The notes beneath the pieces were generated by a model that had not been told where the DNA came from, made no database searches, and saw only the letters and a list, made by a program, of their open reading frames with translations. This document shows positions 1 through 13,503 of a stretch of 13,597 nucleotides of DNA, piece by piece. Location of the stretch: the NCBI GenBank assembly GCA_046726415.1, contig JBKPAK010000027.1, positions 1 through 13,597 on the forward strand. The letters run 5' to 3'. Made by a program: the position numbers and the translations under genes. This DNA is from Candidatus Methylomirabilota bacterium. GTDB taxonomy: Bacteria; Methylomirabilota; Methylomirabilia; Rokubacteriales; CSP1-6. Every line of letters starts with the position of its first letter. Position 1 is the stretch's first letter.

Positions 1-230
1 TCGCGAACCGCGACCTGCGCGCCAAGCTCGACGGCCGCCTCAGCGATCACGCGAAACCGCACAGTGCTCAGGTCAGTCGCCTCCTCCACCGCCTCCACGT
101 CTACGGGCTGGTCGCGAAGATCCCCCGCTCGCGTCGCTGGCCCGTCACTGGGTTTGGCCATCGGGTCATGAGCGCCTCGGTCCGTCTCCGCCCGTTGCAC
201 TTCCCCGCGTTCTACGCCGAGACGGCGTGA
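1..230 (+). CDS. 3' end of a putative mobile-element protein (winged-helix C-terminus), a distant paralogue of 412-2066
   Basis: Frame 3 is open from the window edge to TGA 228-230: ANRDLRAKLDGRLSDHAKPHSAQVSRLLHRLHVYGLVAKIPRSRRWPVTGFGHRVMSASVRLR. This parallels the C-terminus of the next ORF (GFTAQEL...YDLRKLRGEELIERVGTRRRYQPKTPGIRTLTALLILR). It is absent from the ORF track because the start lies outside the window. Confidence 0.75.
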   Translation, partial: ANRDLRAKLDGRLSDHAKPHSAQVSRLLHRLHVYGLVAKIPRSRRWPVTGFGHRVMSASVRLRPLHFPAFYAETA

Positions 231-243
231 AAAGCCGCGAGAC

Positions 244-320
244 CTTCATCGCAAAAACAGAGAACCAACGACGGAAGAATCTTCATCGCAAAAAGCAAAG
301 AACCACCGCAGGAAGAATCT
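244..320 (+). repeat. Imperfect tandem duplication (37/38-bp units), probable element right end
   Basis: CTTCATCGCAAAAA-CAGAGAACCAACGACGGAAGAAT (244-280) and CTTCATCGCAAAAAGCAAAGAACCACCGCAGGAAGAAT (281-318), 33/38 aligned identities, each followed by CT, with no spacer. Confidence 0.9.
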
Positions 321-323
321 ACG

Positions 324-388
324 CTTTTTCCAGGACCTCGCCGGGAAAAAGTGGCTCGCCTAGCGGCGAGCAGCCCGGCTCCACCGGG
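324..388. other. Three consecutive hairpins upstream of the Rep-like gene (putative element left end)
   Basis: CTTTTTCC..GGAAAAAG (324-351), GCTCGCC-TAGC-GGCGAGC (354-371), CCCGG-CTCCA-CCGGG (374-388). Confidence 0.65.
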
Positions 389-411
389 AGCGATCGAATA
401 AGATTCTGGGC

Positions 412-2066
412 ATGAAACAGCATGACGATTCTCGGACTACTACCAGGACTTGCTGGAGGGGCGATATGACTGTCCGGATCGGATTGTGCTCAACGGCTAC
501 TTTCGGCTCGGCCAGCAGGGGGGCGCCTTTCGGCACTGGTGGCGCTGCCTAACTGGCGGCGACGATACCCTCGACCAAGAGCACGTGCTACGGATGGCCG
601 GCCGATTCAGTCGGCGGGTGCATGCCTACGCCAGACGCCATCACATCCGGCTCATTCACTGTGAAGCCGGCGTGCGCAAACACGATCTGGCGGAACAGCA
701 TCGGCCCTCTGATCCCACCTTCACGGGGCTCTTCTTGATCTTGGTCGCCAAAGCGCCGGCGCTCGTCTGGGAAGTGATCAAGACCCCGCGCGGGGCGCCC
801 TACCTGCAGCGCAAGACGCCCTGGCCGTACGTCAACCACTACCATTTTCACCTCATCGACCGAGACTGGGGCCACCTCACCATCAAGATGAGTGAGCATC
901 CGCCCTTTGGCGTGCAGGTGATGCTCAACGGGCACGAATGGGTCGCACGGCGCGCGCGCCGGAAAACCATCGCGACGGGGAAAGAGGGTAACTGCTTTGT
1001 GGGTGGGTCGGACTTCCCAGCTTTGGATCGGCTCGCGGATGCCTTGTGTGATGCTCACGCAATAGGGCGACTGACCAAAGTCTGTGACCGGTGGGTGTAC
1101 TCGAGTTGCTTGTGCTTTGCTCTCGACCGAGACGAGCAACAGCGCTCCGGGTTCCGCTACCAGTATTCCTGTTATCAACTCGAGTACAGCCGGAACTTCC
1201 TGTTTGCGCGTGGCGCGATGCTCGACGAGGTGTACCAAGGGCTCATCGACCGGACGCGCCGCGTCTTAGACGTGGGCACCCTGAAAACGATCTTTGGGCG
1301 GAAACACCGCCCCCATTGGTTTCGCAGGGCCAGGAAGGCGGCGCCCCGGATCGAGCGGGTGCTGGAGGAGTCGACCTATGTCGTGACGGTATTCAAGCTC
1401 CATTTCGATCGTCTGACCTTGAAGCTCTACGACAAAGGCCCGCGGGTGCTGCGGATCGAAGCCATCGCCCACAGCGTCAAAGCCCTACGGTGCGGCAAGC
1501 GCTTGGAGAAACTCTCGATCGTGCTGGCCCGGCTCCAGCGCATGGTGATCGACTTTCTCCACGTGGTGTATGCCGCCCACCTCAGTTCGCTCGATGCGGG
1601 CGCGCTGGACGCCCTACCTCAACCCATCCGCCGCGGCGCGCAGCGGCTGGCAGGCGTGGACATCCAGAAGCCGAGAATGAGGGCGGTCATGGAAGCGGTG
1701 CTCGCCTTGGCGCCCAAACCAGACGGATTTACTGCCCAGGAACTCGTTGACAAGACGCGGGCCCTCCTGGGTCTCGGCGAGAGCTACACGCCCCGGCACG
1801 CCGCGTATGATCTGCGCAAGCTCCGGGGCGAGGAGTTAATCGAACGGGTGGGAACGCGCCGACGCTATCAACCCAAGACGCCCGGAATTCGCACGCTTAC
1901 GGCCTTGCTGATCCTTCGCGAGAAGGTCCTCAAGCCCGTGCTGGCTGGCGCCGGGAAGCCCAAACCGGGGCGGCCGCCGAAACGGGTCCACCCACTCGAC
2001 GCCCACTACGAGATCCTCCAGCGCGAACTGCGGCGCACCTTCGAGACGCTCGGCGTGGCCGCCTGA
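412..2066 (+). CDS. Putative rolling-circle/single-strand transposase: Rep_trans-like catalytic region plus C-terminal winged helix; apparent 1-bp deletion near 430
   Basis: The 538-aa ORF 450-2066 has motifs DRIVLNGY, LNGHEW, QLEYSRN and LKLYDKGPRVLRIE (resembling the Y-x-K...R-x-E of Rep_trans initiators) and a wHTH tail. The frame extends upstream as FSDYYQDL. ATG412 (MKQHDD) joins it if one base is restored at GATTC 427-431. Function is inferred. Confidence 0.6.
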
Positions 2067-2099
2067 GACCTTGGGACAGCATGTTGGCCGTACGCGCGC

Positions 2100-2119
2100 G
2101 CTAAGGGGCTAAGGGGCTA
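2100..2119 (+). repeat. Short tandem repeat GCTAAGGGGCTAAGGGGCTA, probable element right end
   Basis: (CTAAGGGG)x2+CTA, starting 34 bp after the stop codon and followed by a GC-rich hairpin at 2124-2158 (core GGTCCG-TCAAG-CGGACC). Confidence 0.7.
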
Positions 2120-2227
2120 TGCTCCGCCCCGGCCGGTCCGTCAAGCGGACCCGGGCGGCGGGGGCTCCGAGAGAAGGATCGAGGAGGGGCTGAAAGCGGA
2201 CATTGTCCGGGCGGCGAGACGGCTTTA

Positions 2228-3904
2228 GTGTTTGTCTGGTCTCATGCGCACCCGAGAATCCTGGGAGCCGCCGCCGTTCACGATGCAACGTTGAAGCCGC
2301 GAGACGAGTCCGTGCGGGAGTCACTGCCGTTCCATCCGATTTACCCACGCGCTCGGTGGCCCGTCGCCGGCGCCACGATCATCGCGCTCAGCTACGCAGT
2401 TCCCGTCCTTGCGTACGTCGGCGCCATGGTCGACGGATACCAGCGGACCTTCGGAGGCAAGGATGCAAGCCCGCTGCGGCTCGACACGGGGGAGCTCGTG
2501 CACGGCGTGATCCTGTCATTGGGCTTGCTTGCCCTGATCGCGCTGTCGCCGCGAGTCTTCAAGTTCGGAGCCGCGCTGCGGCAGCGGAACGCGATCGACC
2601 TGGTCGAGGGCGACGGCCGGCCGCCGGTCCTGTATCTGCGTTCGTTCGGCGATGACGCGGCGCCCGATTACACGGGATCGGCGTTACCGGTGGGCGCCAG
2701 GCAGACCGTCGAGATGCGGTTGGCCCACGCGCTCGAGAGTGTCGGCGTGGTGATCTCGATCGGCCGCCCGGGCGAACGCCTCCCCGAGCTCGGGGCGAAT
2801 CGCTTCTATGTTTCGGATGCCGAGTGGCAGCGTGCCGTGCGTCACTTCCTCGCCGGATCGGCGGCCGTCGTCATCGTCGTCGGTCGCTCGACCGGTCTCA
2901 CGTGGGAGATCAGGACGGCGCTCGACGAGGTTCCTCACCGGCGGCTGCTGTTCGTCTTCCCCTACCTGTTACCGGGCGAGAAGCGAACGTGGAAGCAGGA
3001 GTCATGGCAATGGCTGCGATCGACGCGGAAGGGTTCCGGCGATGCGCTGGGAGCGCGGCTCCTGAGCGAGCTCCGAGCCGAGCGACAGGCGCGCTACGAC
3101 GCCTTTCGGGCGAATTTCGGTCACGCGTTCTCTACCCCGCTGCCGTCGGAGCTTGGCTCGAGCATAGTCCTGGACTACCTCGACCATGGGTCGCCGCGGC
3201 TCATTCCGACTCGACAACCCCTCTTCGTCCGCCGCAAGCGCGACCGGCAAGGCGTCACGCTCGACTACGCCCGCACGCTGCGCCCGTTCGTCGAAAAGCT
3301 GCAGAACCGCATGATCTCGCCGGATCGCCTCGAACGGATCCTGACCTCGCCACGCGGGCTCCGCCTCGTGACCGTGCTCTCCGGACTGTTCGCGGTGGCC
3401 GGATTCTGCTCGCCGTTGTTCCTCGGGTTCAGCCCGCTTTCGCTCGTGCTCTTCTTCCTCATGAGCGTTCCGGCCTCGTTGGCCTACTGGGGCGCCTGGA
3501 CGCTGCTTCGCGAGACCCCGGAGCATGCACGTGCTCACGCGGCTCGATTCGAACCGGCGGCCGACTCTTTGGTCGTGAACGCCCACGTCACCTATGCACT
3601 GTCGGCACTCGCTCTCCTGTTCGCCGTGCCGGGCGTCGTGGCGCTCGCCATGGCCTATCGGCAGCGCGGGAAGGTGCAGGGAACGCTTCTCGAGCCGCAC
3701 GTCCAATGGCAGATACGTACCCTGTGGGCCGCCCTCGGCTGGTTGGTCACGGCCATCGTGCTCGCCGCCACGGTCTTCCTGGCTCCCCTGGCACTGATCC
3801 TGGCGTTCGTCACGTACCTGTGGGTCACTTACCGCATCGTTCGCGGCTGGCGGGCGCTCGCCCGCCGCCAGCCCGTCGTCCCGTCTCGCTCGTTTCTCGA
3901 GTGA
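2228..3904 (+). CDS. Multi-pass membrane protein with a soluble TIR-like/flavodoxin-fold domain and a C-terminal DUF4870-like membrane domain
   Basis: 558-aa ORF with two N-terminal hydrophobic helices, then PPVLYLRSFGDD...IGRPGE.LP.LGA...WQ...VVIVVGRSTGLTWEI, two more TM helices, and a tail with AY..R...H..WQIRT.W...W..YRIVRGW..L. The start codon is uncertain. Confidence 0.75.
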   Translation: MFVWSHAHPRILGAAAVHDATLKPRDESVRESLPFHPIYPRARWPVAGATIIALSYAVPVLAYVGAMVDGYQRTFGGKDASPLRLDTGELVHGVILSLGLLALIALSPRVFKFGAALRQRNAIDLVEGDGRPPVLYLRSFGDDAAPDYTGSALPVGARQTVEMRLAHALESVGVVISIGRPGERLPELGANRFYVSDAEWQRAVRHFLAGSAAVVIVVGRSTGLTWEIRTALDEVPHRRLLFVFPYLLPGEKRTWKQESWQWLRSTRKGSGDALGARLLSELRAERQARYDAFRANFGHAFSTPLPSELGSSIVLDYLDHGSPRLIPTRQPLFVRRKRDRQGVTLDYARTLRPFVEKLQNRMISPDRLERILTSPRGLRLVTVLSGLFAVAGFCSPLFLGFSPLSLVLFFLMSVPASLAYWGAWTLLRETPEHARAHAARFEPAADSLVVNAHVTYALSALALLFAVPGVVALAMAYRQRGKVQGTLLEPHVQWQIRTLWAALGWLVTAIVLAATVFLAPLALILAFVTYLWVTYRIVRGWRALARRQPVVPSRSFLE

Positions 3905-4104
3905 GCGGCTCAAGTTCTCGTTCCCATCTCTGGGTGACATCGTCGCAGACCTGGAACCCGAACCGCTGATAGAACCCGGCGATGCCGGTGCCATCGGTCA
4001 ATGTCACCGACACGTAGCGGGACCGTTGCAGGTGCACCAGCCCCCCGCGCATACACTGCGTGGCGATACCGTGACGGCCGTAGGCCGGGTGCGTGATGAC
4101 GTCT
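3825..4104 (-). pseudogene. C-terminal fragment of a GNAT acetyltransferase
   Basis: Minus frame reads DVITHPAYGRHGIATQCM (acetyl-CoA motif A) and GFYQRFGF (motif B). The upstream in-frame sequence is not GNAT-like, so the N-terminal half is missing. Confidence 0.75.
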
Positions 4105-4228
4105 GTGCCTACGGCTCCAGCGGGCTCCGGCGTGCCGGGCTGGGGCTGACGCAGGGGGACAGGAGACCTGCGGTGGGGGAGCGGCGGCGGAGGGCGTTGA
4201 TGTCGACTTCTATGAAAGCGGCTGGCCG

Positions 4229-4234
4229 TGTCAA
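4229..4234 (-). promoter_or_regulatory. Outward-facing -35 box (TTGACA) at the IS110 right end, likely half of a circle-junction promoter
   Basis: Plus-strand TGTCAA = TTGACA on minus, with an A-tract upstream (plus TTTTTT 4245-4250). In the excised circle it lies 16 nt before TAGATG, a weak -10. Confidence 0.55.
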
Positions 4235-4299
4235 GTCGCCAGCGTTTTTTCCCGTGTGTGTGTGTCGTCGTCTGGCTGTGGCATGCAGTCCTGGACCGT

Positions 4300-4560
4300 G
4301 ACGAGGCACGCTCGAGTCTCGCGAGGTTCATCAGCCTTCTATTCGCGCTCGTCAGAAGGCGAGGCCTGAGGCCGCGCCGGCGCATGAGGGGATTCGAAGG
4401 GTGGGAGCGCCATCTATCCAGCGGCTCTGCGACGGCAGCCAAGTCGACACTCGCGCTCACCCACCCGTCGAACCTGCGAGAGACCGAGGCGGTCACGGTC
4501 ATGGACATCGTGGGGGTGGTCACCGCGTGATGGGTCGGTCGGGTTCGATTCTCGGATCGT
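4300..4560 (-). ncRNA. Putative bridge RNA (seekRNA) in the IS110 3' non-coding end; boundaries approximate
   Basis: Stem 4393-4410/4453-4472 and inner hairpin 4423-4440 enclose an internal loop. Its strands read GAGUGUCGACUU and GCUGGAUAGAUG in the RNA and match the flank TGTCGACTT and the core TCTAT. Confidence 0.75.
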
Positions 4561-4603
4561 GCGTTCTTCAGTTAACCGAGAAATCCTTGTCCTGGACTTC
4601 TGG

Positions 4604-5668
4604 TCATCTCTCATAGGCGGCCCGTGCGTGGAGTGCCCCGTCCGCCCCGAGGACACCGACGGCGTGGCGGGACTGAAACACGCTGCCGTCACGCAGGAGC
4701 GCATAGAGGATGCCCGCCAGGCGGCGGGCGAGGGCGACGACGGCGACGTGCTTGCCGCGGCGGGCGGCGATGCGCAGGGCCCAGGTCCGCAGCGCCTCGG
4801 CCTCGGGTGGCCGGCGGCGGAGAATCGAGACCGCGGCTTGGATGAGCAGCCAGCGCGCGCGGCCGGGGCCCGCTTTGGTGATGGGCCCCCGGCGCTGATG
4901 CTCGCCGGAGCTGAACTCGCCCGGCACCAAGCCGAGGTAGGCTTCGACCTGATGGGCGCGGCGGAAGCGCCGGGCATCGTCGAGAGTGGCCACGAAGGCG
5001 GCGGCGGTGACGGGCCCGATGCTCGGGACGGTGCGGAGGCGCCGGACGCGCGCATCCTGGGCGGCGAGGTGTTCGATCACGTCATCGGAATACGCGAGTT
5101 GCCGGTTGAGGGGCAGCATGACGGCGAGCAGCGGGCCGATGAGCGAGCGGACGGGGCCCGGCAGGGCCATGGCGTCGACGCGGTGGAGGAAGGCCTGCGC
5201 ACTGCCCGAGGGCACGCGATAGCCGTGCTGGCGGAGCAGGGCGCGGATGAGCGAGATGTACCGGGTGCGGGTGCGGACGAGGGCGTCACGGACCCCCAGC
5301 CGGCCGCGCACGTGGCGCGGGGCATCGGAGAGCCGATGGGCCGGGCGGTAGGCCCCGAGCACGCAGGCGTCCATCAGCGCGCGGGCATCACGCCGATCCG
5401 TCTTGACCTTCCGCGTTCGCGTCGCGTACATCGGGGCGAAGTTCGGATCCGCGACGATGACCTCATGTCCCAACCCCTCGAGGCAGCGGGCCACCCATTC
5501 ACTGTCCGTCGAGGCCTCGATCAGGATCCGCGCGCGGGGCCGTCCGCCGAGCACGGCCGCGAAGCGCTCCGGTTCCGTCCGGATCCGCTGCTCGACCAGT
5601 TCACCCGCCTCCGCCAGAAGACAAATCTGGCTTTCCTTCTTGCGCACGTCGATGCCAATATGGTCCAC
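4604..5668 (-). CDS. IS110-family DEDD recombinase/transposase (354 aa)
   Basis: GTG at 5668 with an AGGAG RBS upstream. Motifs GIDV, IEAS and KTDRRDA (DEDD), TVPSIGPVTA, and YLGLVPGEFSSG (catalytic Ser), AVVALARRLA. The frame is intact. Confidence 0.95.
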   Translation of the reverse strand: MDHIGIDVRKKESQICLLAEAGELVEQRIRTEPERFAAVLGGRPRARILIEASTDSEWVARCLEGLGHEVIVADPNFAPMYATRTRKVKTDRRDARALMDACVLGAYRPAHRLSDAPRHVRGRLGVRDALVRTRTRYISLIRALLRQHGYRVPSGSAQAFLHRVDAMALPGPVRSLIGPLLAVMLPLNRQLAYSDDVIEHLAAQDARVRRLRTVPSIGPVTAAAFVATLDDARRFRRAHQVEAYLGLVPGEFSSGEHQRRGPITKAGPGRARWLLIQAAVSILRRRPPEAEALRTWALRIAARRGKHVAVVALARRLAGILYALLRDGSVFQSRHAVGVLGADGALHARAAYER

Positions 5669-5837
5669 GGCTGGTCTCTCCTCTCTGCGGCCTTGACCGC
5701 GTGTATCCCTTGTGGGGCAGCTTAGGCCACCACGTCGAGCGGGAGGCCAGCCGCTTTCATCACATCTATTCTCGCCGACCCGACCCCCGCCGACTGACCG
5801 CACACCGCTGCCTGGCACCCCGGCCCCGTCAACGGCA

Positions 5838-6215
5838 GGTCGTGCACCCAGATCGTGCGGCCGCTCGTCGCGTCGATGGCCGCCACCTGGCTCGCCGAGG
5901 TGCTGACGTACAGCACGCCGCTGATCATGATCGGCGTCGCCTGGTTCGCCCACGTCCGGATGTCCGGCTGCCGGGCAATCAGCGCGCGGTCGGGGGACGG
6001 CCACCGCCACGCGATCCGAAGCCGGCTCACGTTGTCGCGGTGGATCTGGTCGAGGGACGAGTAGCGCCGGTTGGCGTTCGTGCCGCCGTACGTCGGCCAC
6101 TCCCGCGCGGGGGAACCGCTCGCTCGGCCGGCCCGACCGGGCTGCAGCCCGCCGCGCCGATCGCGATGAGCGCCGCGAGCGGCAGGGCGGCGGACCACGT
6201 GGACCGGAGGTTCAT
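5838..6215 (-). pseudogene. N-terminal fragment of a PQQ-dependent (glucose/quinate-type) dehydrogenase lipoprotein
   Basis: Signal peptide with lipobox-like AAGC from ATG6215, a frameshift at about 6100-6140, then EWPTYGG...RYSSLDQIHRDNVSRLRIAWRW...QATPIMISGVLYVST...AIDATSGRTIWVHD. Similarity ends at about 5838. Confidence 0.85.
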
Positions 6216-6344: not shown

Positions 6345-7958
6345 CTATTGCGGAGAGACGCAGTGGAAGTTCGCCGCCTGCGTGGTGCTGCCCGCCGGGT
6401 TGATCTGCCGCGCCACCTGCGGGTACGCGCACAGCGGTCGCTCGATGTCGACCACACCGCCGGTGCGGTGCACGGCGGTGATGGCGCCCGGGGCGATGCC
6501 GTGTTCCACCCACTGCTCGAGGGGGGTGAGCATGTCGAACTCGTTCGGCCCCGGGCCGCCGCTGCAGTGCAACATGCCGGGGGCCAGATACAGCCGCATG
6601 AACGAGTCGGTGCGATCCTGGCCGAGGGCCGCCGCCACCTCCTCGAAGTAGTCGATCGATCCGAGCGCGGTGATGGCGTGATCGCTCCAGCCGTTGTAGA
6701 CGATCAGCTTGCCCCCGCGGCGCTCGAAGCGGTCGAGGTTCGGATCCGTGGCATTCAGGATGCCGCCGATGAAGTCGAGCGTGGGCGGCCCGGTCTCGAA
6801 GTCGAAGTCGTGGATGTCGAAGCTGCCGTCGTCCTGGTTCGGGTAGGCGAGGTACTTGAAGAAATCGCCGCTGAAGGCGTAGTGCAGGTTCGGATAGGCG
6901 CCGGACTGGTTGGCGGCGCCGACGATCCAGGTGTTCCAGCCGCCCGGCTGGCTCTCCCCACCGACCGGGAATCCGGGGAAGATCTGTCCGTGCGAATTCG
7001 ACGGGCCGGCATAGACCGCCTTCACGGCATCGAGCTGTGCCGTCGTCAGGCACCGCGCGTTGGCCTCGTCGCCGGAAGCGCATCGGGCCAGGTGGGTGTC
7101 GGGGTTGAAGGTGCACACCCGCGGGTCGTCGATGATGCCGTCGGCGATGCCATCGACGGCGTCGCAGTTGGCGAGGACCTGCTGCTCGATGTACGGCAGC
7201 TTCGCGAGCGGCAGCACGGAGGCGGTGAGGTTGCCACGCCCCGGATAGAACCCGACCTCGTTCCACGCGAAGCCGATCATGAACCACGACCAGTTGTAGG
7301 CCGGGGCGCCGGCGATGATGCCGTCGAAGTCCTTGGGGTAGCGTTGCGCCTCCATCAAGGCCTGGCCGCCGCCCCGCGAGCAGCCCTGGAAGTACGAATA
7401 CCGGGGCTTCTTGCCGTAGAAGTCCTGCACGAGCTCCTTGCCGGCGACGGCCGTCTCGTGCACGGCGCGGTAACCGAAGTCGATCACCTTCGTCGGATTG
7501 TCCTGGGCCCAGCTCGCATCGATCGCGCTGCCCTGATGGCCCGTGTCCGTGCGCGCCGTGGCGTAGCCGCGGCCGAGCGGGACGGAGAGGTTGCCCTGGA
7601 ACGAGCCGGCGAAGCCGCCGTTGCCGCCCATGTAGAACTTGCCGTTCCAGCTCTCCGGCAGCCTCACCTCGATGTTGACGTGGTTGAAGCCCTCCCGCTT
7701 GTCGCCCGTGGTCACGTGGCCCAGCACCAGGCAGTGCGCGGGCAGCGTCGTCGACGCCGGCGTCCACGTCGCCGACATGAGCGTGGCCTTCCCGACCCGG
7801 TCTTTCCTCTGCGTGTCATTGGCGATCTCCGCGGCAAGCGTCGCGCACTCCTCCTGGGCCACTCTGTCCTTCGCGAGCGCGTCGACGGGCGCGGCCGCGC
7901 AGAACGCTGCCAAGGTCACCCCGAGTACCAACCTGCTCAGCGAATCGAACGGCTTCAT
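6345..7958 (-). CDS. Secreted tannase/feruloyl esterase family alpha/beta hydrolase (537 aa)
   Basis: ATG7958 with a GAGGAGG RBS and a signal peptide. Motifs RLPESWNGKF..GNGGFAG, TDTGH, YFQGCSRGG (nucleophile Ser), FDGIIAGAP, GWSD, PGMLHC, RPLCAYP. Confidence 0.95.
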   Translation of the reverse strand: MKPFDSLSRLVLGVTLAAFCAAAPVDALAKDRVAQEECATLAAEIANDTQRKDRVGKATLMSATWTPASTTLPAHCLVLGHVTTGDKREGFNHVNIEVRLPESWNGKFYMGGNGGFAGSFQGNLSVPLGRGYATARTDTGHQGSAIDASWAQDNPTKVIDFGYRAVHETAVAGKELVQDFYGKKPRYSYFQGCSRGGGQALMEAQRYPKDFDGIIAGAPAYNWSWFMIGFAWNEVGFYPGRGNLTASVLPLAKLPYIEQQVLANCDAVDGIADGIIDDPRVCTFNPDTHLARCASGDEANARCLTTAQLDAVKAVYAGPSNSHGQIFPGFPVGGESQPGGWNTWIVGAANQSGAYPNLHYAFSGDFFKYLAYPNQDDGSFDIHDFDFETGPPTLDFIGGILNATDPNLDRFERRGGKLIVYNGWSDHAITALGSIDYFEEVAAALGQDRTDSFMRLYLAPGMLHCSGGPGPNEFDMLTPLEQWVEHGIAPGAITAVHRTGGVVDIERPLCAYPQVARQINPAGSTTQAANFHCVSPQ

Positions 7959-8206
7959 GGGTGCGTCCTCCTCGCGGGGGGAGCGCCACGCGCGCCGAGC
8001 GTGCGACTGCCGAGGTGCGCGGGCACGCTTCCGACCGGGCCTGCGCTCGAACGCCGCCGCGGGCCATGCACCCGCGGCGCGGCCATGCCGCATCCCAGGT
8101 AGGCCCCCATTGGTCACCCGGGGCCGAGCGCCGCACGGCGCCGGGCTCTCGCCCGGCCCCCGGGGCCGATCGTGGCTCTCGCTCAGGGCCGAGTCAAGGA
8201 CACACC

Positions 8207-9531
8207 TGTGCCGGTCAGAAACCTCAGCAGCGCCAAGTGGGCGGACGTCGGGAGCGCGAAACGGGGCTCGGCCGGCCAGGGAGCAAGACCGGGGGGCCAC
8301 GACGGGAACGACGTTGCCCCAGAAGGCCGGGTCTTGGACCTGCGAGATCAGCGGGGCAGTGGCCCCGAGCCAGCCGTCGTTGGCTCGGGGCGTCTGGTGT
8401 CAGGCGGCGCGCTGGTACCGGTGATGGAGTCCGCCGAGATGCGGAATCGCCACGATCCGACCGAGAAAAGGGGGCTCGCTATCCCGTGGGTGTGGGCTGT
8501 TCTGGTCCAGCGCTTGATGTGGGCGCGAGGCGTTGTAGTAGACGCGGTAGGCCCGCAGGAGCCGGTGGAGGTGCCGCTCGTTCAGGACGAGGAAGTGGTT
8601 GAGGCACTCTCTTCGGATTGAGCCGATGACCCGCTCGGCGAAGGGATTTTGCCAGGGCGCGCGTGGGGCGATGAGCACCTCACGAATCCCCATCCGCTCG
8701 ACTCGCCGTGCGAACTCAGCGCCATAGATTCGATCGCGATCACGGAGCAAGTAGGTAGGAGCCGCATCGTCTGGGAATGCCTCGACGATCTGCCGCGCAG
8801 TCCAGGCTGCCGTTGGATGGTCCGTGACGTTGATATGGATGAGTTCACGGCGGTGATGGCGCAGGACGACGAACACGAAGAGCAGACGGAAGGTGAGGGT
8901 GGGCACGAGGAAGAAGTCGATAGCCACGATGTCCTGGGCGCGAGTGGCGAGAAAGGTGCGCCACGTAGGTGACGGCCGCGGCGAGGTCCGGTGCATGTAC
9001 TTGGCGACGGTCAGTTCGGCGACGTGGTAGCCGAGGAGCGCGAGTTCAGCTTGGATGCGCCGTCGGCCCCAGGTGGGATTCTCCCGAGCCATGCGTCGGA
9101 TCAGGTCGCGAATCTCGGCGCCGAGCCTTCGGCGGCCGACCGGGTCGTCCGGGACTTCCACCGCCAGTAGAGCTGGAAGCCCTGGCGATGCCAGGCAAGG
9201 ACCGTGGCGGGTTGGACAATGAGGAGGCTGGATCGCCAGCCCGCCCAGCACCGAGCCAGCCAAACCCAGAAGATCCGATCCCAGCGCGACAGGCGGGGTC
9301 GGCGAACGGAGCGTTGGAGGACGGCAAGTTGATGGCGCAGAGCCACGTTCTCGAGGGCGATGGCCGTCGACCCGAGGAGCAACGCACGGAGGAGCGTCGA
9401 GAGAGCGAATAGTGGGATCATGGTGGCCCCCGGCCCAGAGGTCGCGTCGGTGTCTCGACTCTACGCGGTAGAGAGGGGGGTGTGGCGTAAGTTCAAGCGA
9501 GGTGGGCCGAACGGAGTTTTTGACCAGGACA
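8207..9531 (-). mobile_element. IS element with integrase-core (rve, DDE) transposase and TGT...ACA ends (IS481/IS3-like), copy A
   Basis: Ends TGTGCCGGTCAGAAACCTC (8207-8225) and the reverse complement of 9513-9531, TGTCCTGGTCAAAAACTCC, form imperfect IRs. No target duplication is visible. Confidence 0.85.
8400..9421 (-). pseudogene. Integrase-core transposase with a frameshift near 9148
   Basis: N-part ALENVALRHQL...YWRWKSR (from ATG9421) and C-part MARENPTWG...AIDFF...LLRDRD...PWQNPFAERVIGSIRRECL...GGLHHRY lie in different frames. Alignment with copy B shows one missing base. Confidence 0.88.
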
Positions 9532-9739
9532 GCGGTGTGGGTCTTGCCCACGTTGACCGCCGCGATCCGTAGCAGCGCGGTGGCGCGATTCGAGGATCGG
9601 CGAGTCTTCGAGCTGAGCAGCCGGCCGCCGGAAATCTTGTTCCCCGGAGCCAAGGTCAGCCAGGATGTGAAGTGCTTCGCCGTCGGCCACTTCCTCATGT
9701 CGTCGCCGCACTCGGCGACGAGCCGCAGCACGGTGTAGG
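9532..9739 (-). pseudogene. Internal fragment of a second, different IS110 transposase (C-terminal domain)
   Basis: TVLRLVAECGDDMRKWPTAKHFTSWLTLAPGNKISGGRLLSSKTRRSSNRATALLRIAA. It is cut on both sides exactly at neighbouring IS ends. Confidence 0.85.
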
Positions 9740-10800
9740 TGTACCGCACCCGGTTTCCTGGACACCAGGGTGTGAGTGATGAGACGCATTGGAATCGCGA
9801 TTGGAGGGGGTATCGAGATAGCGGCCCCCACTGAGATCGTCGAGCCTGAGCCAAATGCGGCCCTCGATTTTCAGTCCGTGACCGGCAACCAGCCTCATGC
9901 CGCCCTCCGCTGCGCGTCGGCCCGTGCCTGCGCCGGGGTCCGATACCCAAGGCGCTCGATGATCCACTCGGCGTTGTACCGCGCCATGAACTCTCCGATG
10001 ATCCGCGGGGCCTCCGTCAGGCTCGGGAACCGGTGGAGGTAGATACACTGCTCTTTCAGTGTGCGAATGAACCGCTCCATGACCCCGTTGCATTCGGGCT
10101 CCCCCACATACGAGGGGCTGATCGTGATGCCCAGCCACTTCACCTCGTTGATCCACGCATCGGCGATGTACTGGGGCCCCCAGTCACAGCGCACGGCGAG
10201 GCCCCGGGCCACGTCCTTGCCGAAAGCCCCGAAGGCGTGCCGCACCCCCTGCCGAAGCGGCTCGAGGGCCGCCCAGCGATCGCCGAGCTTCGCCACGTGC
10301 CAGCCGACGAGCTCATCGAGATGATGGTCGATCGCTCCGAAAAACCAGCACCACCCGTCTGCCTCCGTGTAGAACCGGGTCGCATCCGTCCCCCACATCT
10401 CGGCCGGCCGCGTAGTGGTGATCGTCCCGTCGTGCGCCGGATTCCCATTCGGCGCCCCGAGCTGGCGGGGAGCCAAGAGGTGGTGGGCCCGCATCAGCCG
10501 GAGCACGTCTTTCCTCCGACGGCGAGTCCCCGATGGGCCAGGCGCGCCCGCACCTTGCGATAGCCCTCCCCGTGAAACGGGGTCGCGGCCAACACCGCGC
10601 GAATGCCCTCGACGATCGCCGCGTCGCTCGTGCCGGTCTTCGGCCCTCGCTTGCCCGGCCCGGGCGCAGCGGCGGGCCGCGGCGTCGCGGCCGCATAGAC
10701 GCTGGAGCGGGGGACCCGGAAGACCGTGCAGATCATCGTGAGCGGAGACGACCATCGCCGTCCCCGCGGGTGCGAAGCCACCCTTCTGGCGCCGCGCGCT
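9740..10800 (-). mobile_element. IS3-family element remnant (right end plus orfB; left part deleted)
   Basis: Terminal sequence TGTACCGCACCCGGTTTCCTGGACACC from 9740. No matching second IR is present. The sequence merges into an unrelated gene at about 10790-10802. Confidence 0.75.
9895..10750 (-). pseudogene. IS3-family OrfB-type DDE transposase, frameshift near 10510
   Basis: PLTMICTVFRVPRSSVY...GEGYRKVRARL, then in another frame VLRLMRAHHLL...WGTDAT...RCDWGPQY...PECNGVMERFIRTLKEQ...YNAEWIIERLGYRTP. Confidence 0.85.
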
Positions 10801-11457
10801 CGCCTGGTACGTCGACCAGATGAAGCACCTGCTGCCGCCGACGATCTTCTTCTTCATCGGCTTCAATTTGATCCTCTGGACGAAGCAGATGATCCTGCAG
10901 GAGCACAACATCGAGTTCAGCGGCTTCCTCGTGGCCACCATGGCCGCCCTGCTCGTCGCCAAGGCCGTGCTGGTCATGGACCACATGCCGTTCATGCGGC
11001 GCTTCGACGGCGCGCCGCTCTTGCAGCCGATCCTCTTCAAGGCGGCGATCTACTGGGCCTGCGTGTTCCTGGTACGGATCGGCGAGGGGCTGCTGCACTT
11101 CCTCCACGAGGGGGGCGCGCTGGTCGACTTCCCGCAGCACCTGGTCGACCGTTTTTCGTGGCCACGCTTCCTCACCATCCAGGTCTGGTTGATGGTGCTA
11201 TTCCTCATCTATGTCACCATTAACGAGCTCAACGGGCTGTTTGGCGACGGCGAGCTGTACCACCTCTTCTTCCGCTGGCGCTCCCGCAGGCGAAGCTGAC
11301 GCGCCGCCAGCGCATTCGGTTGCTGACCCGGCTTAGTCGCCTGACCGAGGCGAACGCCCTCGAGGCGTTCAGTGACCCCCGCACTGCGGCGCACGCCGAA
11401 ATGGTCGAGATCGTCCGCGCGCTCGCGGCGCCGCCGGCTGCGGTGACTGGTCGCTGA
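10793..11457 (+). CDS. Uncharacterised four-TM membrane protein, probably 5'-truncated, with an apparent 1-bp deletion near 11285
   Basis: ORF 10820-11299 (LPPTIFFFIGFNLI..., AKAVLV.DH.PF.RRFDGAPL) extends upstream as RALAWYVDQ. A protein-like tail QAKLTRRQRIRLLTRLSRLTEANALEAFSDPRTAAHAEMVEIVRALA continues in the -1 frame to TGA 11455-11457. Confidence 0.7.
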
Positions 11458-12169: not shown

Positions 12170-13503
12170 TGTGCCGGTCAGAAACCTCATCGGCCAGCCG
12201 TTGAGAATGCCTGACACTTGGCGCGAACGTCTGGAACCACATCCACGTCGTATTGAGTGTGATCAGGATTGTCGCGTTGATGGCCGCCGAGGACTGGAGT
12301 GCAGATTACCCATGCCAGTCAGGGTGGATCGCACGAGCGGGCGACGGCTGGCCCGCCGGCCGACCACGATCAGGCGACGCGAGTGTAGCGGTGATGGAGT
12401 CCGCCTGCCTGAGGGATGGCGATGATCCGGCCACGTGGCGAGGGTTCGACGACTCGTGGCTGGGGACTGTGTCAAGCGATTGGTGTGGCCGCGTGGTGTT
12501 GTAGTAGGCGAGATACGCGCGCAAGACGCGGCAGAGATGGGCCCCGCTCAGAATGATGACGTGGTCGAGGCATTCGCGACGGATTGAGCCGATCACCCGT
12601 TCCGCGAAGGGGTTCTGCCAGGGCGCTCTGGGGGCCGTGATCACCTGGCGGATCCCCATGTGGTCGACGCGCCGAGTGAAGGCCTCGCCGTAGATCGAGT
12701 CTCGATCCCGAAGTAGGAATTTCGGGCCGGTCTCCTCCGGGAACGCTTCGATCACCTGCCGGGCCGTCCAGGCTGCGGACGGGTGATCCGTCACGTTGAC
12801 GTGGAGAAGTTCGCGGCGGTGATGCCGCAAGACGACGAAAACGAACAGCAGGTGGAAGGTGATCGTGGGGACAACGAAGAAGTCGATGGCGACGATGTCT
12901 CGGGCATGCGCGGCGAGAAAGGCGCGCCACGTGGGCGACGGCCGAGGCGACGTCCGGCGCATGTACTTGGCGACCGTCAGCTCGGCGACCTCGTAGCCGA
13001 GAAGGGCCAGCTCCGCCCGAATGCGCCGGCGGCCCCACGTCGGATTCTCCCGCGCCATGCGTCGGATCAGGTCGCGAAGCTCCGCGTCGAGTCTCGGGCG
13101 GCCGACCGGGTTGGGCCTGGACTTCCAGCGCCAGTAGAGCCGGAAGCCTTTGCGGTGCCAGGCCAGTACTGTGGCCGGTTGCACGATGACGAGACTGGAC
13201 CGCCAGCTCGCCCACAGGCCTGACAGCCAGACCCAGAAGATCCGGTCCCCCTGAGACAGACGTGGTCGGCCGGCCGACCGCTGAAGGACGAGGAGTTGAT
13301 GGCGGAGCGCCATGTTCTCAAGGGCGATCGCCGCTGACCCAAAGAACACGGCGTGAAGGAAGGTTCCTAAACCCGTCACGAGAACCATCGCGGCCCCCCC
13401 CCGGCATCCGGCATGGCGTCTTGGTCGAGACCTACCGGATCAGCGGTGGAGACGGTAAAGAAAGTTCAGGTAGGACGAGCAGATGGGGTTATTGACCGGG
13501 ACA
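12170..13503 (-). mobile_element. IS element with integrase-core transposase and TGT...ACA ends, copy B
   Basis: TGTGCCGGTCAGAAACCTCA (12170-12189) is identical to 8207-8226. The other end, reverse complement of 13485-13503, is TGTCCCGGTCAATAACCCC. No target duplication. Confidence 0.87.
12370..13388 (-). CDS. Integrase-core (rve, DDE) transposase, frameshifted near its 3' end (about 12470)
   Basis: ATG13388, ALENMALRHQL, AIDFF, LLRDRD, PWQNPFAERVIGSIRRECLDH. The family tail SPQPRVVEPSPRGRIIAIPQAGGLHHRYTRVA* lies in the shifted frame and ends at 12370. Confidence 0.88.

Follow-up and report, generated by a model that had tools for sequence, protein, structure and literature searches.

The start of one contig in the genome of a Candidatus Methylomirabilota bacterium contains two distantly related genes placed head to tail, each followed by a short end of the same pattern, and the question raised by this locus is what kind of mobile DNA produces such an arrangement. 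The window analysed here (the whole stretch of 13,597 nucleotides, GenBank contig JBKPAK010000027.1) is the start of this contig, C27, in a genome of 7.6 Mb in 352 contigs. According to our study, the segment 322-2111 of the window is probably an autonomous insertion sequence (IS) of a very large and unnamed family, the transposase of which combines a Rep_trans-like nicking domain with a winged helix. We also lean slightly towards the view that these elements form a new mechanistic class of prokaryotic transposon. Its enzyme would be a tyrosine nickase of the fold shared by Rep_trans and TATA-binding proteins (TBPs), which would cut A(A/G)G-N3-CT^A, move one strand from a hairpin-bearing left end to an unstructured right end, and use targets that mimic its own end.

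Boundaries, copies and empty site

The first part of the window is made up as follows.

1-230, forward strand: gene of a truncated type-A paralogue, its final 75 codons, cut by the contig start (translation, relatives and family hidden Markov model, HMM).
231-282, forward strand: right end of type A, reaching GGAAGAATCT (DNA similarity with four other type-A copies; kept in the empty-site contigs).
283-321, forward strand: second, non-identical tail of a type-A end, finishing GGAAGAATCTA (alignment; missing from the empty site).
322-2111, forward strand: type-B element proper, 1790 bp, consisting of left end, one gene and right end (shared junctions; same-genome copies on contigs C326 and C306).
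324-351, forward strand: left-end hairpin 1, with an 11-bp stem and a 6-nt loop, 2 nt past the junction (covariation and fold).
354-371, forward strand: left-end hairpin 2, with a 7-bp stem and the loop TAGC (fold; stem comparison).
413-2066, forward strand: predicted transposase gene, with its ATG at 413 and its frame, as assembled, from TTG 450 (538 residues) (starts of homologues; extra base in copies).
450-1586, forward strand: predicted catalytic domain, TBP-like (Rep_trans-like) (alignment, model and fold searches).
1590-1955, forward strand: winged helix-turn-helix domain and, behind it, a C-terminal helix (structure comparison with VIA-align).
2077-2086, forward strand: CAGCATGTTG, with one mismatch to the conserved 10-bp palindrome CAACATGTTG, starting 35 nt before the end (right-end alignment).
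2103-2111, forward strand: terminal motif AAGGGGCTA (AAG-N3-CTA) (same-genome copy and right ends elsewhere).
2112-2119, forward strand: tandem 8-nt repeat of the end (AGGGGCTA) (an X1 contig identical over 2060-2600).
2120-2170, forward strand: unique flank starting TGCTCC, with a GC-rich hairpin (non-repeated in the genome; joins the type-A end in the empty-site form).

The bases 3-230 code for the final 75 residues of a type-A protein, the frame of which runs off the contig start. Its translation was matched by the family HMM (profile positions 439-526, E 4e-6), and four relatives in the same genome were 66-80% identical to it (C160, C303, C139 and C32); the full-length type-A relatives on C32 and C160 showed 26% identity to the downstream type-B protein. 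The initial annotation had described two divergent paralogues in tandem, and the open reading frame (ORF) 3-230 is indeed a distant paralogue of the ORF 450-2066. The end strings that it had read, GAAGAATCTA at 312-321 and TAAGGGGCTA at 2110-2119, were found in place, as were their CTA-Y-GCT continuations (CTA-C-GCT at 319-325 and CTA-T-GCT at 2117-2123). Both ends were in addition found to be locally doubled, over 39 nt (283-321) and 8 nt (2112-2119), respectively, which had gone unnoticed. Intact homologues of the type-B protein are about 550 residues long and begin with MKQHD(E/D)FSDYY, and the same start was found at the ATG at 413 of the window. Relative to the homologues, the window gene has one base missing after 428; an extra T is present in the copy on C326, and an extra T or G follows 428 in contigs of the soil metagenomes X1, X2 and X3. 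The sequence of the window copy thus appears to be either slightly damaged or mis-assembled.

The left ends were compared in 22 distinct type-B junctions from Proteobacteria, Verrucomicrobia, Acidobacteria, Gemmatimonadetes, Desulfobacterota and Anaerolineae, and the right ends in 20 loci, where the terminal CTA was measured from the conserved palindrome. In all 22 junctions the type-B left end starts with N-G-C and runs straight into the 11-bp hairpin, followed by the second hairpin. The window agrees with this common start from base 322, although the C326 copy had pointed to 378. The left flanks contained a terminal CTA in 21 of the 22 junctions and the complete AAG-N3-CTA in 16. At the right end, CTA was placed exactly 35 nt from the start of the palindrome in 15 of the 20 loci, AAG-N3-CTA was present in 14, and the palindrome CAACATGTTG was exact in eight. 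Of the unit of about 321-2119 that had been proposed before, the left edge at 321/322 stood, as the junctions of other genomes begin identically right after CTA, and the right edge was supported by the fixed distance of CTA from the palindrome; the element proper, however, ends at 2111, and 2112-2119 is the 8-nt repeat. Only 277 occurrences of AAG-N3-CTA, both strands counted, were found in the 7.6-Mb genome, so that its presence at both ends is not due to chance. The three variable bases are AAT and GGG in the window target and the element's own end, and since they differ, the idea that they are a copied guide was rejected.

Hairpin 1 (324-351), folded together with 354-371, gave a z of -3.9, and none of 200 shuffles folded as well. 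Over the 22 loci, 97.9% of the cells of its stem pair and compensatory changes occur in four of the 11 pairs (22 cells), a covariation score that was reached by none of 500 shuffles; on this comparison, hairpin 1 is selected as a structure. The stem sequences of hairpin 2 (354-371) vary among lineages with the pairing kept, as read by eye. The initial annotation had placed a hairpin at each of the two junctions. The first is the conserved one with covariation, and the second (2124-2160) is present with a z of only -1.5, 18 of 200 shuffles being as good. This second hairpin was rejected as an element end, as it is unique in the genome and no better than shuffled GC-rich sequence. The absence of terminal inverted repeats was borne out (27 inverted pairs were found, none of them terminal), and no target duplications were found at the element edges.

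The other types were found to have ends of a similar plan. Type A contains a left CTA followed by two bases and a GC hairpin, and its right end finishes with GGAAGAATCTA. Type F ends with ...ACTA and its conserved left end begins with CCTA. In the single copy of the C348 type, CTA, GC and a hairpin precede the ATG by 216 nt, and ...GGCCTA follows the stop codon by 53 nt. Two further observations concern the ends. In the window's genome, the right flanks of family ends start with YGC(T/G)C in eight of nine cases (window 2120-2125; C32:16583, C139, C160:8182, C303:6561 and C326); this start follows only 10 of the 277 genomic AAG-N3-CTA sites, six of these 10 being element ends, and it also occurs in soil contigs and is absent from the right flanks in other phyla. 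It may be a lineage-specific preference for targets which mimic the first bases of the left end, or it may mark the remnants of tiny end-only derivatives. A dispersed short repeat, type D, was seen at C32:14700-14760, C160:6290-6330 and 450-590, C303:9197-9247 and C297:4161-4241. It ends with ...CCGYCTA and contains a GAAC-N4-GTTC hairpin, with type-A elements directly behind it in C32 and C160, and it may represent either an end-only derivative or a further subfamily's right end.

Scanning a single genome for each species yielded 40 loci. One genome of the Gammaproteobacteria was found to contain six type-B copies of 1788 bp with 99.4-99.8% identity, and one genome of the Anaerolineales seven copies of type F, a 21%-identical relative, of 1669 bp with 99.3-100% identity; the edges of these multi-copy elements are sharp and the flanks on both sides are unrelated. 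Additional copies are present in the window's genome, two of which lie at contig edges, and most of the best 120 homologues lie on contigs of about 2 kb. When aligned, the copies of the Gammaproteobacteria genome and those of the Anaerolineales genome were near-identical, with sharp shared edges, and they stood in multiple unrelated flanks rather than as single copies in conserved synteny, in line with the mobile element that had been suspected.

These copies also bear on the alternative that the element is an integrated small rolling-circle replicon (a plasmid or satellite), its protein being a replication initiator and the chromosomal copies by-products of integration. The left-end hairpins could act as an origin, and a Rep_trans-like fold joined to a winged helix is the architecture of an initiator, including that of the archaeal Rep-Arvir in the available text of PMC13107129. 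All observed copies, however, are chromosomal or on large plasmids, with exact edges and in many places per genome, and the element contains no second gene in its 1.8 kb. No circular form was found in the contigs of four runs, and a replicating circular intermediate would be compatible with an insertion sequence as well. We consider the replicon very unlikely.

An empty site was searched for by aligning the contigs of four soil metagenomes (X1-X4) to window 1-2600. Contigs of X2 and X4, which come from different studies, were found to join base 280 to 2117, with 1836 bases skipped. The joint has a 2-nt ambiguity ('CT'), and its short side is 38 letters long in X2 and 22 in X4. The depth was low (3.2 and 2.6, respectively), with one contig per run and a short side in X4, and the evidence is good but not overwhelming. 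The unique right flank of these contigs showed 0 differences to the window, and hence there are populations in which the type-A end is joined directly to this flank; it follows from the joint of 280 to 2117 that no target sequence was duplicated on insertion. As the resident end finishes with ...GAATCT and T is the first base of the inserted DNA, the cut was not after CTA but at CT^A or at most two bases further left. The insertion at CT^A that had been proposed fits this joint, and CTA^ is ruled out.

The inserted piece (281/283-2116/2118) consists of the second type-A tail (39 nt), the type-B element and the 8-nt repeat, in this order. Several positions of the 39-nt tail do not match the resident type-A end, and in three runs (X1, X2 and X4) the tail has loose ends at place 277, beyond which it runs leftward into other DNA. 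Type B apparently brought the tail with it from an earlier stacked position. The DNA at the loose ends is a side observation: the tail continues there into about 30 other letters which start right after another TCTA with CGCGC, and these letters together with the tail resemble an internally deleted type-A derivative of about 70 nt, consisting of a left-end start and a right end. With respect to the repeat behind the element, Rep proteins of pT181 type pass the nick by 10-12 nt before terminating, according to the available text of Carr 2016 (PMC4797284), and by analogy the 8-nt repeat may or may not be related to such an overrun.

Family, fold and candidate active site

The family was found to be large. 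Of the 8000 candidates scored at 90% clustering, 5699 had E ≤ 1e-3, and at 50% identity clustering there were 4809 clusters at E ≤ 1e-3 and 436 at E ≤ 1e-30. The hosts belong to Proteobacteria, Acidobacteria, Chloroflexi, Verrucomicrobia, Gemmatimonadetes, Desulfobacterota and Actinobacteria, and a homologue 80% identical to the type-B protein comes from a Rokubacteria bin. By sequence comparison, the family thus comprises thousands of clusters across many bacterial phyla which are annotated as hypothetical. The best 120 homologues contained no Pfam domain and were labelled 'hypothetical protein' or 'ArsR family regulator', and likewise the 13 matching plasmid records. A full-length member, 49% identical and annotated as hypothetical, is present on the plasmid NZ_OY970457.1 (473 kb) of Mycobacterium riyadhense at 143353-144990, with five matching places on this one plasmid, and more distant members were seen on megaplasmids of Rhodococcus and Burkholderia.

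No model of Pfam, NCBIfam, PADLOC or PHROGs matched any subfamily, and no NCBIfam transposase model matched types B, A, F and C348 or three distant representatives. The ESM Atlas returned only clusters of 'hypothetical protein' with scores of 0.82 or lower. The statement that the element belongs to no named IS family therefore agrees with the NCBIfam and Pfam searches, ISfinder being outside the search. Models of the HUH Y1 enzymes (TnpA of IS200/IS605) and of the HUH Y2 enzymes (IS91/ISCR) in Pfam and NCBIfam found no match, and no HUH protein was among the top fold matches. The DEDD models of IS110 (PF01548/PF02371) gave no match in the type-B protein, and the same search found both of them in the ORF 4604-6100 of the window. 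These searches support the earlier remark that DEDD and HUH motifs are absent. In open-access PMC and bioRxiv, the literature that was searched, neither this family nor a transposase with a Rep_trans or TBP fold was found described. The element family and the transposase class are apparently undescribed in these two sources, and an earlier description may exist in ISfinder or in subscription journals.

The label of the homologues raises the alternative that the ORF is a passenger or a regulator, an ArsR-like DNA binder, and that the element is moved in trans, for example by a nearby IS110 or IS3 transposase. Some databases do name the homologues ArsR family regulators, and there are many other IS genes in the window. 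Nevertheless, the ORF fills the element and is the sole gene between sharp ends in unrelated phyla, four or five subfamilies with 21-29% identity share the same end architecture, the winged helix accounts for only about 120 of 550 residues, and the copies occur in genomes and flanks without a common neighbour. A passenger gene is, in our judgement, highly improbable, and the ORF is taken below as the transposase of the insertion sequence.

A full-length AlphaFold model made with 24 diverse sequences had a mean predicted local distance difference test (pLDDT) score of 85.3 and contained a 390-residue N-domain, a winged helix at 394-515 and a C-terminal helix. The winged helix gave VIA-align Z scores of 9-10.4 with the N-terminal domain of Rio2, MarR, ArsR and Orc/Cdc6, and may bind the end, as had been proposed. 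The search with the whole protein was dominated by this winged helix and gave no match at E ≤ 1e-3; the N-domain was therefore modelled alone from the window sequence (pLDDT 83.6, predicted template modelling score 0.84). In the Foldseek search of this model against the Protein Data Bank (PDB), the sole matches at E ≤ 1e-3 were the four chains of 4cij (RepSTK1), with E of 1.5e-4 to 4e-4. VIA-align gave Z 7.3 with 4cij_B (193 aligned residues, root-mean-square deviation 4.8), Z 7.2 with 4cwe_A and Z 6.9 with 4cwc_A, and Z 7.3-8.3 with TBPs (about 174/180 aligned); the next entries were partial matches with Z 6.7 or lower. Against BFVD, 19 matches at E ≤ 1e-3 were found, to inovirus proteins and giant-virus TBPs, and the match at rank 24 (E 1.8e-3) was A0A345MNV4. 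This last protein is an inovirus Rep_trans initiator, and the archaeal initiator Rep-Arvir has been linked to Rep_trans by fold in a like manner, according to the available text of PMC13107129. The Rep_trans sheet shares the connectivity of TBP in the available part of Carr 2016 (PMC4797284). The Rep_trans fold that had been expected thus appears in the model as a TBP-like fold with Rep_trans structures as the top matches.

The residues D23, R24, D150, E258, Y340, R348 and E350 were invariant in the 24 diverse full-length proteins, and K338 and K342 were conserved in 90% or more of them. The addition of types A, F and C348 (22-25% identical) left the columns of D23, R24, D150, E258, K338, Y340, R348 and E350 invariant. 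In the numbering of the window protein, the invariant residues are D10, R11, D137, E245, K325, Y327 (codon 1428-1430), R335 and E337, with K329 at 90% or more. The tyrosine of K-x-Y-x-K is the only invariant tyrosine of the catalytic domain. In the model, this tyrosine and the R-x-E lie on the consecutive last two strands of the sheet (322-328 and 333-340 in the window), the first strand contains D23, and D150 lies at the end of a middle strand. The motif LKLYDK...LRIE which had been picked out by eye accordingly corresponds, in the model, to an invariant K-x-Y-x-K / R-x-E pair on two neighbouring strands; in the second motif, QLEYSRN, the Q, E and N are invariant.

In RepD, strand 10 carries R189-x-Y191-x-K193 and strand 11 carries R212-x-E214, the further metal ligands being D142 and D46, according to the available text of Carr 2016 (PMC4797284), and our alignment of eight plasmid Rep proteins showed the same invariant residues. 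The order and the strand placement of the family residues in the model agree with those of RepD. The residues D23, D150 and E350 are candidate metal ligands, being invariant, on separate strands and in the same order as D46, D142 and E214 of RepD, a correspondence of sequence order and strand placement. Judged from the model, the protein shares a Rep_trans-like fold and resembles a Rep_trans nickase, but it is not assigned to Pfam's Rep_trans family (PF02486).

Head-to-tail stacking and proposed mechanism

Stacking was examined with the family HMM over 2.6 kb upstream of 25 type-B left junctions. A family member on the same strand, ending within about 100 nt upstream, was found at 10 of the 25 loci, in seven genomes, and none of the 25 loci contained an upstream family member on the opposite strand. 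One further upstream match (L033) was about 2.2 kb away. The upstream partner is of type A in the window and in L030 and of type F elsewhere; in the Gammaproteobacteria genome, a type-F element precedes five of the six B copies. There, every pair of B parts is 99.7-99.9% alike, whereas the similarity between the preceding F parts of two lineages is only 83.5-84.8%; B therefore entered behind F ends on more than one independent occasion. The piling up on related ends, which had been proposed from the window, is thus a general behaviour.

The same data were compared with the alternative that the functional unit is the pair of paralogues (F+B or A+B), a two-gene element rather than a stack. The pair is frequent, being present at those 10 of 25 loci, and three loci of one genome share an F+B block with 98.6-100% similarity. 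However, B occurs alone (L019) and F occurs alone (seven copies), the partner varies between A (window and L030) and F, nearly identical B parts follow F parts that are only about 84% alike, and, judging by the empty site, the A end was in place before B arrived. A two-gene unit is thus extremely unlikely. Some details of the arrays may be added here. The loci L020, L022, L024 and L043 of one Gammaproteobacteria genome contain, at about 1270-4702, full F+B arrays of 3.4 kb with different outer flanks, and in L021 the F copy is interrupted by another insertion. The similarity of the F+B block within one lineage (98.6-100%) makes a co-mobilisation of the pair possible.

For the single insertion sequence we propose the following mechanism. 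The enzyme would recognise A(A/G)G-N3-CT^A on the coding strand of its gene. At the left junction the motif would lie in the flank, with the left-end hairpins 2-3 nt later, and at the right cut it would lie within the element's own right end. The invariant tyrosine (Y327 in the window, Y340 in full-length relatives) would be the cutting residue and form a 5'-phosphotyrosine link, with a metal held by the invariant acidic residues. The strand between the cuts might then be released, or displaced by synthesis from the 3'-OH of the flank, from the left to the right end, and the released strand could be closed into a circle, the joint of which again reads the motif and then the left end. The reverse reaction at any similar motif would give insertion without duplication and without need of inverted repeats. 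Since all members of the family finish with this motif, the best targets would be the right ends of their relatives, and head-to-tail stacks would result. In the window, type B with 39 nt of a previous type-A end would have landed at the CT^A of the resident type-A end, the 39 nt being carried along when an upstream look-alike motif, AGGAATCT, was used as the left cut. Such a mechanism would explain why the ends are asymmetric and the orientation is strict, and it would also account for the stacking and the carried 39 nt.

Several observations weigh against this reading of the element and its enzyme. The window type-B copy itself carries the frameshift. The fold scores are moderate, as Z 7-8 is common, per the tool, for models without a clear match and the TM-scores were 0.27-0.37; TBPs score as high against the N-domain model as the Rep proteins do, so that the fold is TBP-like and its likeness to Rep_trans may stem from homology or from convergence. 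No sequence-profile link to Rep_trans was found: hhalign of the family with eight Rep_trans plasmid proteins gave a non-significant probability of 0.1-0.2% over 11-15 columns, and no Pfam model matched; an 11-column piece pairs C-x-D-R-I of the family with S-I-D46-R-I of Rep and is suggestive only. PF02486 gave no match with the window protein at E ≤ 1, with the 24 diverse members at E ≤ 10, or with types A, F and C348, and this family is also absent from the window's own genome. The sequence search of the PDB gave one chance match only (E 0.37). No structure was predicted, by folding against shuffles, at the right ends of types B and A, where inspection by eye showed short stems of 3-4 bp in the stretch from the palindrome to the end. 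A circle or tandem junction of 2111 to 322 was not found in the contigs of the four runs, a weak negative, as only contigs were searched and rare forms drop out of them. The origin of pT181 is nicked in the loop of a hairpin, whereas the nick proposed here lies beside the hairpin and not in its loop.

Some of these points would suit the same element and transposase working by another chemistry, in which the TBP-like domain is convergent and acts as a hydrolytic metal nuclease or in a double-strand cut-and-paste or copy-out reaction, with no covalent tyrosine. The profile comparison with Rep_trans was not significant, the TBPs fit the model as well as the Rep proteins, and the four invariant acidic residues (D23, D150, E258 and E350) could form a purely metal-dependent site. 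This has to be set against the only invariant tyrosine, which is placed in K-x-Y-x-K one strand ahead of R-x-E as in Rep_trans, and against the ends, where target duplications and inverted repeats are lacking and the end motif is strand-specific, a combination characteristic of nick-and-transfer enzymes rather than of the DDE type. We regard another chemistry as unlikely, and the tyrosine nickase as the more probable assignment.

Surroundings, significance and comparison with known systems

The remainder of the window is a stretch rich in IS genes. The first host gene past the element is a frame of 558 residues at 2228-3904 on the forward strand, with hydrophobic stretches like those of membrane proteins, as read by eye; it was considered as a family member and rejected, as it has no Pfam match and was missed by tblastn of its own genome with the type-B protein. 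An ORF on the reverse strand at 3825-4523, similar to GNAT acetyltransferases (weak, E 6e-6), overlaps the end of this frame. The ORFs named next are on the reverse strand. An IS110-family transposase is present at 4604-6100 (DEDD_Tnp_IS110 E 1e-12, Transposase_20 E 3e-24), followed by a tannase/feruloyl esterase gene at 6345-8300 (PF07519, E 3e-118), which lies between IS copies. Three IS3-like ORFs at 8400-9950, 9895-11040 and 12306-13388 contain integrase-core domains (rve, rve_3) and HTH_21/HTH_32; the first of them additionally contains a piece of Transposase_20, which suggests nested or fused IS remnants.

If the enzyme assignment is true, a new class would be added to the known transposases, which include DDE, DEDD and HUH enzymes, tyrosine and serine recombinases and Cas1, and the Rep_trans fold, like HUH, would have been recruited for transposition. 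To our knowledge, HUH enzymes act as plasmid initiators, phage initiators, relaxases and transposases, and Rep_trans enzymes only in the first three roles; a Rep_trans transposase would be the missing counterpart of the HUH transposases. Paralogous families would then build head-to-tail arrays, sometimes carrying each other's ends, and targeting of end mimics would explain how related elements form such arrays. The family also breaks assemblies; a family model would correct thousands of annotations and help to account for contig breaks in soil and sludge metagenomes. The 9-nt target motif, the strict orientation and the absence of target duplication make the system a candidate tool for sequence-directed insertion of single-stranded DNA.

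Among known systems, the Rep_trans initiators (PF02486; RepC/RepD of pT181-type plasmids and RepSTK1, 4cij, 4cwc and 4cwe) share with the predicted enzyme the same TBP-like crescent sheet, a strand with basic-x-Tyr-x-Lys followed by a strand with Arg-x-Glu, an Asp on the N-terminal and on the middle strand, and a DNA-binding domain behind the catalytic domain. They differ in that there is no significant sequence or profile similarity, in their domain of about 200 residues against about 390 with long insertions here, in the DNA-binding part, which is a winged helix here, and in being replicons, whereas the present element is a chromosomal multi-copy IS. The MOB-T relaxases of conjugative elements (e.g., Orf20 of Tn916 and RelSt3) combine a Rep_trans domain with a helix-turn-helix. 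They are likewise Rep_trans-type nickases with a DNA-binding domain that mobilise integrated DNA from a specific nick site, but they serve cell-to-cell transfer and need a conjugation apparatus, whereas the element here, of 1.8 kb and one gene, moves within genomes.

The IS200/IS605 elements (HUH Y1 TnpA) have no inverted repeats or target duplication, are strand-specific, and contain structured subterminal DNA and one small nickase gene. The present elements resemble them in insertion on one side of a short specific sequence, in the lack of inverted repeats and target duplication, in structured subterminal DNA, in strand specificity and in a single small gene, here for a predicted nickase. 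The enzyme fold, however, is unrelated and contains no HUH motif; the target motif here is the element's own right-end motif, which would drive stacking, and only the left end is clearly structured. The IS91, ISCR and Helitron elements (HUH Y2) have asymmetric ends, no target duplication and a short conserved target, and may carry flanking DNA. Asymmetric ends, the absence of target duplication, a short target and a flank carried along when a boundary is missed are found here as well, but those elements use HUH Y2 enzymes, and what is carried here is 39 nt of the left (5') flank, not DNA of the 3' side. Rep-Arvir, an initiator of archaeal viruses and plasmids, is likewise, in the available text of PMC13107129, a TBP-fold nickase with a winged helix, is tied to Rep_trans only by structure, and shows the same pattern of fold matches, to giant-virus TBPs and an inovirus Rep. 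It is an archaeal replicon initiator with the motif KHYYM, whereas the protein described here has bacterial hosts, the motif K-x-Y-x-K, and the predicted role of moving an insertion sequence.

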